A DNA stretch of 25,730 nt from a virus (lineage: Duplodnaviria > Caudoviricetes), in the IMG/VR virus record IMGVR_UViG_3300033067_001501, positions 1 to 25,730 of that record. One strand, given 5' to 3'. The notes beneath the pieces are model-generated. The model made no database searches, had not been told where the DNA came from, and saw nothing but the letters and a program-made list of their open reading frames with translations. Numbering within the stretch: position 1 is the stretch's first letter; each line of letters starts with the position of its first letter. Position numbers and translations under genes: made by a program. This document shows positions 1,377-6,946 of this stretch, piece after piece.

Positions 1377-2180
1377 TCACGATGAAGAAACGCGGCCAAC
1401 GGCACACATACGCGAGACGAGACCAGTAGCCGAGAGCTGCAACTTGGCTTTCGTCGGCGACAACGCAGCCCAAGCGGCATCCCGAGCGGCACCCCAATCG
1501 GCATCCCGAGCGGCATCCAGAGCGGCATCCAGAGCGGCATCCAGAGCGGCACCGAGAGCGGCATCCCGAGCGGCATCCCAAGCGGCATCCCAAGCGGCAT
1601 CCCAAGCGGCAGCCCGAGCGGCATCCAGAGCGGCATCGAGAGCGGCATCGAGAGCGGCATCCCAAGCGGCAGCCCAAGCGGCATCCCAAGCGGCAGCCCG
1701 AGCGGCAGCCCGAGCGGCATCCCGAGCGGCAGCCCGAGCGGCAGCGAGAGCGGCATCGAGAATCGGCGCAACTACGTCGACGTTGCTCGCCGTGATCTCG
1801 TCCAATCCGCGCAGGGCTTCCGCGTGCATCCGGGTTGTCTCCGTCAGTGACATCCATTCCGCAAGACACTCGCGGACCAACCAGTCCAGCGCCATCCACG
1901 ACCTGCGCAACTCATCCGCGTCGGTCGTGGCCGTGCCGATCACCTGATTCAGCAGCGGGCCAAGCAGTCGCTGTCGGTCTCTGTCCGATCCCAGATCGTC
2001 ATTCCATATCCGCATGAATGACGCGATGATCGGCGACACGCACTTAGGGCGATCGCTCCACCCCTCGCCAGCGATGTAGGCCGCAGCCTCCATCACGCAC
2101 ATATCTTCGCCAGGGCTATGCGAACCTGTCCGGAAGGCGTAGTCGCCCGCCAGAAGACGCTCCTTCAGGTCTCCACTCAT
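1377..2180 (-). CDS. phage protein with Ala-rich AA[W/R/L][D/A/G] tetrapeptide repeat region
   Basis: N-terminal GSH...MCVMEAAAYIAGE.WSDRPKCVSP domain followed by AAWDAARDAALD repeats; GAGGTG SD. Confidence 0.85.
   Translation of the reverse strand: MSGDLKERLLAGDYAFRTGSHSPGEDMCVMEAAAYIAGEGWSDRPKCVSPIIASFMRIWNDDLGSDRDRQRLLGPLLNQVIGTATTDADELRRSWMALDWLVRECLAEWMSLTETTRMHAEALRGLDEITASNVDVVAPILDAALAAARAAARDAARAAARAAAWDAAWAAAWDAALDAALDAALDAARAAAWDAAWDAAWDAARDAALGAALDAALDAALDAARDADWGAARDAAWAALSPTKAKLQLSATGLVSRMCAVGRVSSS
1464..1761. repeat. coding 12-bp degenerate tandem repeat, about 25 units (e.g. GCGGCATCCCAA / GCGGCATCCAGA / GCGGCAGCCCGA)
   Basis: Directly visible, period 12. Confidence 0.95.
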
Positions 2181-2976: not shown

Positions 2977-3858
2977 ATGTACCTCGTTGATCTGCTCGCT
3001 CGTTATCGTGCCGCGAAGCTCAAGGATGCTTCGCCGAACACGGATCAGAAGTTCCGGCAGGCCATCGCTGAACTGGCTCGATCTGTCGGTCACGCCCCAA
3101 CGTTGGACGACCTGGCGGACGCGAACATCGACGCGATGATGATCCGCAAGGCACGGCAGGGACGGTCCCCGGCATCGGTCAATACGCTGGCCGCGAAGCT
3201 CTGCGCGATGTGGACCTGGGCGCACAAGAAAGGCATCACCACGACTGGCCCGGACGTGCAGATGTTGAGGGAGCCTCGCGTCGCGCCCGTAGCGTGGACC
3301 CGCGAGCAACTCGACCAGGTGTTTGAGGCTGTGGCTCAGGCCGAGGGAGTCATCGCCGGAGTGCCTGCCCCGCTGTTCTGGCGGTGCTTGTTGTCGATCC
3401 TGTGGGACACGGGGGAACGTCGTGGTGCGATTGTTAATCAGTTGCCGTGGGAGAATCTGGCGAACGGGCAGCTACTCGTCCCGGCGTCTGCCCGCAAGGG
3501 GAAGACTCGCGACATGGTCTACGCTCTGCACCCAGAGACATTGCGGCTCTGCGAGCATGTGCGAGCGTTTGGGACGCCTACGATCATCCATTGGGACCGC
3601 ACGGTTCATCAGTTGGCGAACCGGTTCCGGACGCTCTTAAAGCGTGCCGGGCTGCCACACGACCGCAAGCACCTCTTCCACTGCATCCGCCGCTCTGTCG
3701 CCAGTCACGGGGCCGCAGCGGGGGCAGACGCCTCGCAGCTCCTCGACCACTCAGACCCGTCGATCACCCGGCGGTACTATCTCGACCCTCGAATTGTGCC
3801 AGCACCGAGGGCGGTTGACGTGCTGTTCCGGCCGGACTCGCCGCGGCCCGCTGCGTGA
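2977..3858 (+). CDS. int: tyrosine recombinase / integrase, 293 aa
   Basis: Catalytic set DTGER(R), K (RKGK), HCIRR (HxxR), LLDHS, TRRYY; SAM-like core-binding N-terminus (SPASVN); GGAG SD before ATG 2977. Confidence 0.93.
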   Translation: MYLVDLLARYRAAKLKDASPNTDQKFRQAIAELARSVGHAPTLDDLADANIDAMMIRKARQGRSPASVNTLAAKLCAMWTWAHKKGITTTGPDVQMLREPRVAPVAWTREQLDQVFEAVAQAEGVIAGVPAPLFWRCLLSILWDTGERRGAIVNQLPWENLANGQLLVPASARKGKTRDMVYALHPETLRLCEHVRAFGTPTIIHWDRTVHQLANRFRTLLKRAGLPHDRKHLFHCIRRSVASHGAAAGADASQLLDHSDPSITRRYYLDPRIVPAPRAVDVLFRPDSPRPAA

Positions 3859-3874
3859 TTGCCGAAATCGATGC

Positions 3875-4084
3875 TCACGACTTCGCGGGCTTCTCCTCGA
3901 CGGGCTTCGCGACCTTCGGGCGCCCCCTGGTCATCGTGTCCGCCAGTTCCGGCCGCCCCATCGCAGCACAGAGCGTCCGGCGAATCCAGTCCGCCTCGAC
4001 GAATCCGTTCGCGTCGCAAAACTCCCGCATCGCAGCCTGGATCGCGTCGCTCATCGGTATGGACTTCAGTCGACTCTTGGTCAT
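3875..4084 (-). CDS. small ribbon-helix-helix (CopG/Arc-like) DNA-binding protein, 69 aa
   Basis: MTKSRLKSIPMSDAIQAAMREFCDANGFVEADWIRRTLCAAM fits strand-helix-G-helix; RGRP AT-hook-like tail. Confidence 0.6.
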   Translation of the reverse strand: MTKSRLKSIPMSDAIQAAMREFCDANGFVEADWIRRTLCAAMGRPELADTMTRGRPKVAKPVEEKPAKS

Positions 4085-4103
4085 TGTGGCCCCGCAGTAT
4101 GGT

Positions 4104-4148
4104 GAAACGAAGAAACCCGGCGAGTCGCTTTCGCGGTCTGCCGGGTTT
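4104..4148 (-). terminator. intrinsic terminator
   Basis: AAACCCGGC 4113-4121 / GCCGGGTTT 4140-4148 with inner CGC-GAAA-GCG tetraloop on the minus strand, followed by a U-rich tail (UUUCUUCGUUUC). Confidence 0.75.
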
Positions 4149-4303
4149 GCTTGGGGACTGATTCGCCGTCCCTCGCTAGGTCTGATTCCCCGACTCCCGG
4201 TAGTGTGCCGATTCCCCGCACTTCTCGGTAGGCCGATCTCGCTGGCTCCCCGCATCTGGCCGCGTTCGGGGGCCAGGTCCTATGTCGCAGTCGCCTGCGT
4301 CAT
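4105..4303 (-). ncRNA. putative ~200-nt small RNA with repeated GG[G/C]GA[A/G][U/C]C[A/G] hairpin loops
   Basis: Bounded by a near-consensus promoter and a terminator; four similar 9-nt loops; only a 7-codon ORF at its 5' end. Confidence 0.6.
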
Positions 4304-4309
4304 GGTGTT

Positions 4310-4361
4310 ATTATACATACCTTTTCGGCTTGGTCAACGGAAATGTACATATCTTTTTCGG
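4310..4361 (-). promoter_or_regulatory. near-consensus sigma70-type promoter with overlapping direct repeats
   Basis: TTGACC (4337-4332), 16-bp spacer, TATAAT (4315-4310); repeats TACATACCTTTTCGG 4314-4328 and TACATATCTTTTTCGG 4346-4361. Confidence 0.8.
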
Positions 4362-4403
4362 ATTTTCTGGAAAACGATCAGAAGCCCGCGTTTTCGCAGT
4401 CGC

Positions 4404-6050
4404 TCACTCCAAATCTGCATGTCGGCACCGCACCGACCAGTCGATCTTCGCAACCCATCCCGCCGACGAAATGTCCTCAAAAAAATTCGGGTCAAAGTCG
4501 CCGCTCTTTCCGCCGTGGTGCAGCACCGTCGCCGTGAACACGCTGGAACGCAACAGCAGGCACCCAAAGCCTGTTCCGCCGACAACCTGCAATCCCTCGC
4601 CCGGCTCGGTGAGAACGCGGCAGGAGCGATCCCACGCGAAGTAGCCCGCCTGATAGCGTGACCTGTACGCACCGGACACGCTCACCGTGTCTTGCTCCAT
4701 GCCGCGCATCAGGCGTTCCACGGCATCGACCGGCGGGAGAACGTCGTCCTCGACGATCAGCGTGTATGGGGTCGCGATCTCTTGTCGGACCCGGTTGTAG
4801 ATCCGCGGCATCGCCCTCTGCACGCCCCGATACACCTCTTCCCGGTGCCTGTTTGCATCCGCCAGCCCGGCGTCCCCGACTCGCATTGCAACGTACTGCG
4901 TGGCTCCGTATCGGCACCCGGCCAGCCAGTGCCGAACGTCGCGACCGAAAGCCTCGTCGTCGCTCGTGTCGACGATCAGGATTCGCGTCTGATCGGTCGG
5001 CCACGCCTGCCGTTCCAGCCAGTCCGCAATCCTCGGCCACCATTGACGACGACCGGAAAGTGGAATCGCAATCGTGACGTGCTCCATCGCCAGCCCTGCG
5101 ACCTCAAAATGCGGTCTCGTCGTCAGGTAGACCGTGTGCCCTTCCCCGTGCCGTCGATACTGGTGGACCGCTGGTGATTTGACCGCCTTCCACCCATCGG
5201 CGAGCAACTGCCGCCAGATATACCAATCTTCCAGCGTGCAAGCCGGGATGTCCCGCTCGAACACGCGGGCCGACTCCAGCGCAATCCGCCGCGCCAGTGA
5301 CGCCGCGTGGATGTAGTTTCGCTGGCTGATGTCACCTGGCTGGAAGTTCAGCCGCTCGTTTCGCAGCCCGAAATTCTGGCAGTCCGTGAACACAATTCCG
5401 ACGCCAGTGTCGAATCGTTTCACGCCCTCGGAGAGGTAATCCGGCCGCAACAGGTCATCCGCGTCAAAGAACGTCACCCAGGGGGCCGTAGTCGCGGCAA
5501 ACCCTGCTGCTCTGGCCTTGTGGATGTTGCGCACGTCGACCGCGATTCGTCGCACCCCGTACCGCTCGCACACTTCCGCCGTGTCGTCCGTCGATGCGTC
5601 ATCGACAACCACGATTTCAGCCGGTGCCATGATCTGCGCGTTGAGGCTGTCCAATGCCTCTGGCAAGAACCTGCCGTAATTGTGGCAAGGAATGATGACG
5701 GCAACCGGTGCGACAGGTTTTTGCTCGCCGCGGTCATCGCACTTTCGGCACACCTTCACGCCCTTTATTGCGTGCTGGTTGATCGTGCATTCCCCCGCGA
5801 TCGCACAGGCGAACACGTCGACAACCGGCCCCCCGACACACCGTTCCAGTTTGCAAGTGTCCTGCCGCAGAACGGAACCGCGATGCACACACGGCAGTTC
5901 GGTCGACGACTGCAGCCGACGTGCGTCTTTGGACCGTGGTAATTCTCCCCGCTGGCACTTCGCCAGCGTCCCGGACGTAACTGCCATTTGCCGTGACGGA
6001 CACCACCCGGCGGCTTGGCACTCGCAGTTTACCGGTTGTCTGGCCCTCAT
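4404..6050 (-). CDS. Cys-rich N-terminal domain fused to two tandem GT-A (GT2-like) glycosyltransferase domains, 548 aa
   Basis: GT 1: VIIPCHNYGRFL, VVVDDASTD, FFDADD, EDW. GT 2: VTIAIP, LIVDTSDD, LIVEDDV, GTGFGCLLL. 11 Cys in the first ~105 aa; ATGA overlap with the upstream gene gives start 6050. Confidence 0.9.
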   Translation of the reverse strand: MRARQPVNCECQAAGWCPSRQMAVTSGTLAKCQRGELPRSKDARRLQSSTELPCVHRGSVLRQDTCKLERCVGGPVVDVFACAIAGECTINQHAIKGVKVCRKCDDRGEQKPVAPVAVIIPCHNYGRFLPEALDSLNAQIMAPAEIVVVDDASTDDTAEVCERYGVRRIAVDVRNIHKARAAGFAATTAPWVTFFDADDLLRPDYLSEGVKRFDTGVGIVFTDCQNFGLRNERLNFQPGDISQRNYIHAASLARRIALESARVFERDIPACTLEDWYIWRQLLADGWKAVKSPAVHQYRRHGEGHTVYLTTRPHFEVAGLAMEHVTIAIPLSGRRQWWPRIADWLERQAWPTDQTRILIVDTSDDEAFGRDVRHWLAGCRYGATQYVAMRVGDAGLADANRHREEVYRGVQRAMPRIYNRVRQEIATPYTLIVEDDVLPPVDAVERLMRGMEQDTVSVSGAYRSRYQAGYFAWDRSCRVLTEPGEGLQVVGGTGFGCLLLRSSVFTATVLHHGGKSGDFDPNFFEDISSAGWVAKIDWSVRCRHADLE

Positions 6051-6946
6051 TGTGTTACCGAACCAGCGAGGTAGTAGGGCGGAATGGTGCATCCACCCGG
6101 ATCAGGTATGTACGTGTTGCCGGGAATCTTGCCGACTTCTTGGATGATTGGATCAGCCGGAACGCCGTTGCACATCGGCCCGGATGCGGTCACCGTATAA
6201 GGAGGAGTCTCTTCGTCGTCATGTAAGATCGGGCCGCTCAAAACAGCGTTTACGGGACTGCAACTTTGCATTGAAAGTGTTCCGAACACGACACCGAGCC
6301 AGCCGCTTGTCGCCGACCAACCGATGTTCTTTTCGTACCATGCCCCATAAACAGTCGTGTTCGGACACGTCTCCCGCCACAGTGCTTCAAATCGTGTCGT
6401 GCTGGCTTTGTACCACGGCGTATCAGCCACCCAGCCCCAGACGCAGGAACCACCTGTTCCGGCGGTGCTCAGGAAATCCGCCCCAGGTGCGAGAACCATA
6501 TCCTTGGCGACGAATATGCGCCCAGTCGGGACGGGCGTGATGCTGTTTCGCGTCCAGTAGCTGCCCGGCCAAAGGTCAATCCCAAAGTCAAACAGGTCGC
6601 GTGATGCAGACACGTACCACCCGCTCCGGCTATGGATCGTGTCGAGTTCGTCGCCGTGCTGTCCGGGAAAGGCGCTTAACGGCCCGTAGGATGTGCGGTA
6701 GGCATTCGGAATCGGGCGCTCGTATGTCAACGGGATGGGACCCGTCTCCTGCATCAGTGTTACACACTCACTCAGTGGACAAAGTGTGTAATTCTGAATT
6801 CCGCCAGACGGCCCGGCGTATTGTGCGAGAACGCGACTCGTCCACAAACCCACATCAAAATCAAGAGACTGCACGCCGTGCCCGCCGTCTCTAAACATCG
6901 TGGACGCACAGCAGGTATCCGTACAGCAGCATCCGCCGAGTGGCAT
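6047..6946 (-). CDS. putative tail-tip protein with N-terminal poly-Cys motif, 299 aa
   Basis: Starts MPLGGCCCTDTCC at ATG 6946 (TAATG overlap); Gly/Trp/Tyr-rich, beta-type composition. Confidence 0.7.
   Translation of the reverse strand: MPLGGCCCTDTCCASTMFRDGGHGVQSLDFDVGLWTSRVLAQYAGPSGGIQNYTLCPLSECVTLMQETGPIPLTYERPIPNAYRTSYGPLSAFPGQHGDELDTIHSRSGWYVSASRDLFDFGIDLWPGSYWTRNSITPVPTGRIFVAKDMVLAPGADFLSTAGTGGSCVWGWVADTPWYKASTTRFEALWRETCPNTTVYGAWYEKNIGWSATSGWLGVVFGTLSMQSCSPVNAVLSGPILHDDEETPPYTVTASGPMCNGVPADPIIQEVGKIPGNTYIPDPGGCTIPPYYLAGSVTQ

Follow-up and report, generated by a model that had tools for sequence, protein, structure and literature searches.

An apparently uncatalogued mobile family of phage RNA hairpin arrays with a sponge-like design

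To our knowledge, there are few examples of phage RNAs that titrate host proteins (pseudo-ToxI and the Racrs), and almost no RNA-based regulation or defence has been described in the planctomycete phylum. Promoter-proximal hairpins in phage transcripts are familiar as the put and nut antitermination sites of lambdoid phages. As far as the cited sections of the sources go, CsrA recognises A(N)GGA within hairpins, and the CsrB RNA carries 22 GGA hairpins (PMC10729762), and it has been suggested that Planctomycetes regulate CsrA via FliW rather than through sRNAs (PMC4682653). Phage PhiTE carries expanded pseudo-ToxI repeats, a precedent for a phage RNA decoy (PMC3475682), and monomers of the ToxI type are described as pseudoknots of 34-36 nt (PMC5086642). 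The Racr RNA anti-CRISPRs are solitary mimics of CRISPR repeats for which a dose-dependent titration of host proteins has been proposed (PMC10651486).

The window (the whole stretch of viral DNA analysed here, 25,730 nt) represents part of a temperate tailed phage genome, with terminase, portal, Clp-type protease, Mu-like capsid and a tail module, as well as a glycosyltransferase, an integrase, an excisionase-like HTH protein and CsrA. A hairpin array lies in the gap that separates the last of the late genes from the converging integrase. The predicted product is a small RNA of ~200 nt, reaching from a promoter through four covarying hairpin units to a terminator, with the following features.

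4310..4337, minus strand: sigma70-type promoter, -35 box TTGACC (4337-4332), -10 box TATAAT (4315-4310), N16 spacer, 11/12 matches
near 4303, minus strand: predicted +1 of the array RNA
4314..4357, no strand assigned: operator-like direct repeat of 12 nt, 11 alike (repeat family D7), on either side of the -35 box and in contact with the -10 box
4282..4303, minus strand: 5' hairpin with a GCGA tetraloop, pair probability 1.0
4256..4276, minus strand: hairpin CUGGCC[CCCGAACGC]GGCCAG of the centroid fold
4232..4251, minus strand: unit 1 in its corrected register, GGGGA linker, stem GCC/GGC, loop AGCGAGAUC, from the linker-anchored comparison
4205..4231, minus strand: unit 2, linker CUACCGAGAA, stem GUGC/GCAC, loop GGGGAAUCG, from covariation
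4180..4203, minus strand: unit 3, linker CUACCGGGA, stem GUC/GAC, loop GGGGAAUCA, the query that found most relatives
4154..4179, minus strand: unit 4, linker CUAGCGA, stem GGGAC/GUCCC, loop GGCGAAUCA, pair probability 0.9
4105..4148, minus strand: intrinsic-terminator-like hairpin with a U-rich tail, predicted 3' end of the RNA
3875..4084, minus strand: RHH-like protein of 69 aa with a C-terminal GRP-basic tail, best folds Arc, ParD and CopG, none at E <= 0.001
3881..4388, no strand assigned: exchangeable cassette of promoter, RNA, terminator and RHH gene, from the X7 contig match

An earlier note on this DNA had proposed a decoy RNA bounded by a near-consensus promoter and a terminator, and both boundaries hold. 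TTGACC-N16-TATAAT is the sole promoter-like site in 3000-5500 (0.4 expected), and the hairpin at 4148-4113 is far more stable than shuffles (z -4.1), with a simple terminator scan passing it over. This terminator is nearly identical in the related loci L008, L009 and L032, with no compensatory changes among its 11 pairs. Across the 15 copies described below, nine have, no more than 260 nt upstream, a promoter site with at least 9/12 matches, a count made without a shuffle control, and by eye no clear U-tailed terminator follows the arrays of L090, L093, L084 and L048-L050. At the 5' end, a hairpin with a GRACGCA loop stands in the place equivalent to 4256..4276 in L032, L048, L049 and L094, and the first bases of the 4282..4303 hairpin agree with the leader that follows the second promoter in L008-L010. 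A 7-codon frame (4303-4280, minus strand), in frame with the RHH gene, opens with an ATG whose A is the predicted +1; in L008 (3381), L009 (7974) and L010 (7807), the second promoters begin with a like sequence, in frame with the next gene. These ATGs at +1 are possibly leaderless starts.

The four hairpins first drawn in the window needed one revision. All four quoted strings are in place, and hairpins 2-4 are backed by covariation in relatives, but hairpin 1 was out of register. The string GGGGAGCCA is kept in relatives, where GCCA pairs with UGGC (L048, L049, L055, L093), or GGCA with UGCC in L159; unit 1 of the window is therefore a GGGGA linker followed by GCC[AGCGAGAUC]GGC at 4246-4232. 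The pattern CGGSGARYCRG, derived from the window sequence itself, occurs five times in the window, four of them inside 4158-4252 (0.58 expected; 0/100 shuffles). The array fold is worse than shuffles in the window (z +2.0) and no better than shuffles in five copies (z +0.1 to +3.1), and in the full RNA the pair probability is 0.9 for hairpin 4, 0.12 for hairpin 2 and 0.0 for hairpin 3. The hairpins are thus unsupported by thermodynamics alone, and it is comparative data that support them; since the short stems are barely stable on their own, the fold rests on covariation among related sequences.

Fifteen distinct copies, the window and 14 others, were found in phage or phage-like contigs. Relatives of the integrase gave two copies among 20 loci (L008, L009), pattern scans added L032, L048 and L049/L050, and a later scan L159. 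L055 lies in a Planctomycetaceae genome in a prophage-like context, and L083, L084, L087, L090, L092, L093 and L094 are short metagenome contigs, phage-like with unverified status. Successive scans for relatives returned true copies in 0/6, 3/20, 5/5, 1/27, 2/2 (both known), 8/15 (arrays) and 6/10 (one new) cases, and single-protein scans gave nothing useful for finding relatives. The copies are related in sequence, and a single unit (unit 3) served to find most of them, so that the counts are not independent events and the apparent conservation of that unit is inflated.

The unit thus defined spans ~24 nt (period 23-26) and consists of a linker CUASCG(GG)A, a 3-6-bp stem closed by a C-G pair, and a loop GGSGARWCR. 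Arrays hold 3-6 units, with exact tandem duplications in L048, L049 and L055. Among 34 distinct units selected by their loops, 25 pair at stem positions 2 and 3, where permutation means are 13.3 and 13.6 and 0/10,000 permutations reach the observed value; pairing at stem position 4 is not significant in the same set. In alignment A3, which retains 25 of the 34 (the nine left out overlapped, had 10-nt loops or stood out of register), pairing reaches 82% of cells, compared with 53% when shuffled and 17-41% in slid controls, with 30 two-sided changes. Selection by the linker gives a similar picture: a hairpin follows 46/51 sites (control 188/522), and distinct loops are 9 nt long in 19/30 cases (control 39/522). 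Stems take forms such as GUC/GAC, GAC/GUC, GCC/GGC, UCAC/GUGA, GAAC/GUUC and GGGGCCCC/GGGGCCCC. The earlier observation that stems change in sequence and keep pairing around constant loops is therefore upheld across the loop-selected units. A constant loop and linker, changing stems and no excess of fold stability is, as read from sequence, the signature of exposed binding sites.

Several loci lie at the margin of this family. The L003 locus has two same-loop hairpins directly before the scaffold-like gene of a different phage (3075-2980, minus strand), with no match to model R1, which acts mainly as a sequence model (its stem is one column off), and 14 bits with model R2, in which the stem was corrected; this pair is perhaps a separate motif and a doubtful member. 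Single or degenerate units without an array occur in L091 (3046-2974, minus strand), a 400-kb contig whose unit scores 33 bits with R2, and in L082 (3020-3001, minus strand). In L055, a duplicated insert of ~50 nt with a different hairpin is interleaved among standard units (2914-2830, minus strand).

Searches of Rfam gave no match for the window or the 14 related loci, apart from one chance match and a twister-P1-like ribozyme in L093 (1214-1265, plus strand; 41 bits, E 4e-6, under the gathering score). The latter lies between promoter and array and would free the array RNA at its 5' end. No tRNA was found, and no description of the motif was found in the literature by exact motif or topic. 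In a collection of candidate phage RNAs it is absent from the supplements covered by the search, and the alignment archives of that source may include it as an unnamed candidate (PMC10690425). Among the matches listed (11/28 places) in the supplements of PMC2864571, all are other motifs. The pan and STAXI motifs of that source, as described in its cited sections, also set short structured units in tandem, STAXI likewise near integrase genes; however, STAXI is a pseudoknot and pan a stem with two bulged A, and the array has no Rfam match (PMC2864571). The array thus represents a real, apparently uncatalogued mobile RNA motif family whose sequence suggests a sponge-like design.

The statement that the region has no convincing coding frame stands as well. 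A frame of 126 codons (4255-3875) is open in the window, and the array could in principle form the 5' half of such a gene, two of the three X7 changes listed between 4303 and 4085 falling at third positions of that frame (synonymous). However, RHH homologues start at the Met equivalent to 4084, unit lengths run from 23 to 26 nt, and stops close all three frames in 7/15 copies, so the element is non-coding and a gene of this kind is scarcely credible. A function as DNA (integrase arm sites, operators or single-strand DNA hairpins) is suggested by an integrase near the array in four copies. We regard it as very improbable, given that stems covary instead of keeping their sequence, that the array invariably lies on the strand which the upstream promoter would read, that the L048-L050 arrays lie among packaging genes, and that 18/20 integrase-related loci have no array. 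Both the attP-arm and the coding alternatives are disfavoured.

The resemblance to CsrB, CsrC and RsmZ was the starting point for a proposed partnership with CsrA. Like those RNAs, the array is, by sequence prediction, stand-alone between its own promoter and terminator, and it shows a conserved purine-rich loop on many weak hairpins. In contrast to them, it lacks A(N)GGA loops, has GGA at chance level, possesses a second conserved element in the linker, and is phage-borne, mobile and not tied to phage csrA; no Csr/Rsm family of Rfam matches the window or its relatives. The six GGA triplets noted previously are present, but in no excess, 5.5 being expected from composition. GGA and ANGGA are at composition expectation in all 15 sequences counted (L003 in, L159 out), and ANGGA occurs in 0/34 loop-selected and 2/30 linker-selected loops.

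The genomic distribution lends the partnership no support either, since RNA and phage csrA are uncoupled both ways. CsrA is encoded by three RNA-bearing phages (the window, G002 and G004), its window version (141-335) being an ordinary family member. However, the co-occurrence proposed as a check is not seen for phage csrA in complete genomes: G705, a complete 90-kb phage, carries a hairpin-array locus and no csrA, and the complete G412 and G425, like G003 and G424, carry csrA with no RNA found. A modified form of the idea is that a host CsrA paralogue with shifted specificity binds GGA-containing linkers or loops. It draws on the CsrB-like architecture of many weak hairpins, on GGA in 14/34 loops and 16/34 upstream flanks, on the phage-encoded CsrA proteins, and on the seven CsrA-family genes of the Planctomycetaceae genome G006, a likely host, which are the reason for keeping it under consideration. 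With GGA counts at expectation, GGCGAA as the commonest loop and the uncoupled distribution, it is improbable. As a separate observation, CsrA is multiplied in G006 and common in G003, G412, G424 and G425, with no known sponge RNA there.

The cassette has moved between phages. A contig from another study (X7) aligns with 3881-4388 at 98%, gap-free and with 10 differences, and its flanks of 461 and 167 bases are unrelated to the window. Among the sequencing runs listed, no RNA run carried the sequence, a result that bears neither way on expression. Among seven listed differences of the 10, none touches units 2-4 or the terminator stem; the 5' hairpin tetraloop changes from GCGA to GCAA, and two changes in the RHH gene are synonymous. 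A 16-nt imperfect inverted repeat (3884-3899 and 4375-4390) lies nearly at the ends of the shared cassette and may be due to chance. The array follows the tail module in the window, L008 and L009 and the integrase in L032, lies between terminase and portal genes in L048-L050, and heads early clusters of small genes in L055 and L159.

The 69-aa RHH-like protein has no match in Pfam. The promoters of L008, L032, L093, L094 and L159 are overlaid by inverted or direct repeats, and operator-like repeats on promoters with RHH-like genes near in five copies suggest autorepression; this protein would act as an autorepressor of the cassette promoter, with the direct repeat at 4314..4357 as its probable binding site. 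The downstream gene differs or is absent in other copies. In L008 (3070-2995), L009 (7600-7530 and 7280-7240) and L010 (7575-7500), all on the minus strand, a repeated hairpin leader of ~70 nt precedes exchangeable small genes that stand in front of the RHH gene; this arrangement resembles a recombining gene-cassette array, and the leader has no Rfam match.

The main rival to a trans-acting RNA is a cis-acting leader, in which the array would act on the nascent transcript, by put- or nut-like antitermination or as attenuator loops competing with the terminator, to control the genes behind it. It is favoured by copies running directly into genes (L090, L159, L092), and the array stands just behind the promoter in most copies. 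The loop of hairpin 4 can pair with the 3' arm of the terminator (8/9; pair I15). Moreover, the RHH gene of the window and of L032 has no obvious promoter of its own, so that read-through would be needed, which together with the missing clear U-tailed terminators fits a cis role and bears against a decoy. Nevertheless, downstream genes are of no common class, the array of L084 follows a short gene and that of L093 a twister-like ribozyme, and in L008 and L009 the following genes have a fresh second promoter behind the terminator. The syntenic relative L010 has lost the array and kept the operon, with the same glycosyltransferase, RHH gene, second promoter and integrase. Unlike put and nut sites, the array varies in unit number, moves freely in genomic position, has its own terminator and is dispensable in a syntenic relative. 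We therefore consider this reading unlikely, if less so than a CsrA sponge.

If the RNA acts in trans, its ligand is probably host-encoded, because G705 shares no candidate partner protein with other carriers: at blastp E <= 0.001 it has no protein in common with G002 or G004, and its one match to the window is the Clp-type protease. At blastp sensitivity it is therefore unlikely that all carrier phages encode a common partner. The host of the window phage is probably a planctomycete, as prophage genes with 45-50% identity to its capsid occur in 4/301 genomes of the class of a Planctomycetaceae genome, to which the comparison was limited. The capsid of G705 has a 39% relative in a Polyangiaceae genome, which is weak host evidence.

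Searches for a host counterpart of the units were negative. Pattern matches in 401 Planctomycetota genomes were at or below the reversed-pattern control (45/401 genomes), and 30 loci from these matches held no array. Model R1, run on 151 genomes, returned only a prophage-like fragment of G006 (15 loci inspected), and R2, run on 151 Myxococcota genomes, no convincing array (5/21 matches inspected), with 32 candidates scored per genome in each case. In 121 Planctomycetia genomes, single hairpins are more numerous than with the reversed control, but they are mostly coding-like and not preferentially paired (13/30 complementary). There appears to be no convincing host-chromosomal copy in the genomes searched, at limited sensitivity. 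The searches run found no host RNA mimicked by the units, the two 16S and two 23S genes compared contain no complete unit, and for an antisense role the longest complement elsewhere in the window is 11 nt.

These searches bear on the known phage decoys. As with pseudo-ToxI and type III antitoxins, in the sections cited, the array is a repeat RNA that expands by tandem duplication and is followed by a terminator and a gene (PMC3475682, PMC5086642). A type III antitoxin in the strict sense, which had also been considered, fails on its downstream gene, RHH-like and not fixed rather than an endoribonuclease toxin, and on its fold. The H-type pseudoknot monomers of ToxIN, CptIN and TenpIN, 34 nt or more in length, were ruled out by the period of 23-26 nt and the simple-hairpin covariation, and no loop-linker pairing was seen in the units by eye. 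As a special case of a decoy, the units might stand in for the antitoxin RNA of a host toxin of type III, or of a similar toxin neutralised by RNA, as pseudo-ToxI of PhiTE does. The repeat expansion parallels that phage (PMC3475682) and the promoters are strong and of early type; units that are ~24-nt simple hairpins rather than pseudoknots of the described size (PMC5086642), with no host antitoxin array or cognate system in the genomes searched, make this highly doubtful. The Racr RNAs, in the portion of their description drawn on, share with the array the small size, the position right behind a promoter and the proposed titration of host proteins; the array is tandem, with no spacer-length variable part, and is set apart from the solitary Racr by this architecture (PMC10651486).

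A likeness of the units to the double T-loop module of T-boxes was also weighed. The order of purine-rich 5' segment, short stem and loop resembles the T-box apex (7/8 T-boxes parsed), AGCGA in several linkers equals the AG-bulge motif described for glycyl T-boxes (PMC11404447), and one loop, in L032, reads GGUGAAA. However, the module, as described, needs AGNNA...UGNNA (PMC3664808), and the candidate was rejected on this invariant core: 0/30 loops start with U, UGNNA occurs in L032 only, and many linkers read ACCGG or AGCGG. Furthermore, the T-box motif is at the 3' end of its loop and the array motif at the 5' end. Such a module has very little probability.

Exposed conserved sequence, covarying weak stems, variable unit number, an own promoter and terminator, free genomic position and exchange between unrelated phages fit a trans-acting RNA. 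From the stand-alone decoy RNA first proposed, the non-coding, multi-hairpin, decoy-like design is retained, backed by covariation, promoter, terminator, mobility and unit number, and the link to CsrA is given up. We consider it an even call whether the array works in trans as a multivalent decoy that takes up a host RNA-binding protein, perhaps a factor of defence. As such, the RNA would be made early and strongly from its own promoter, the neighbouring RHH protein later damping its production. Each ~24-nt unit may provide one binding site, composed of single-stranded CUASCG(GG)A, the weak 3-6-bp stem and the GGSGARWCR loop, which the bound protein would stabilise, and more units would bind more protein. 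The target would be a host protein conserved from one host to another, with a role in defence or gene regulation as the most plausible, and disabling it would benefit the phage.

More tentatively, the family could be a new class of phage RNA for counter-defence, exchanged horizontally: an expandable array of two-part units of 24 nt would sequester an immune or regulatory RNA-binding protein that is conserved among hosts of at least two phyla (Planctomycetota and Myxococcota), with a small RHH autorepressor throttling the array. If this counter-defence reading is true, the ligand would bring to light either a new RNA-sensing defence or a global regulator independent of CsrA. In any case, a sharply defined unit, supported by covariation and kept and amplified by unrelated phages, is a ready-made bait for a host protein, and naming that protein could open up RNA-based regulation or defence in the planctomycete phylum.

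Finally, two genes of the window deserve mention. The GT2 glycosyltransferase (4404-6092, minus strand) has a Cys-rich N-terminus and closes the late module, as it does in L008-L010. A second frame (1377-2180, minus strand) contains a long low-complexity region of Ala-Trp-Asp and Ala-Arg-Asp repeats and matches PHROGs of unknown function.
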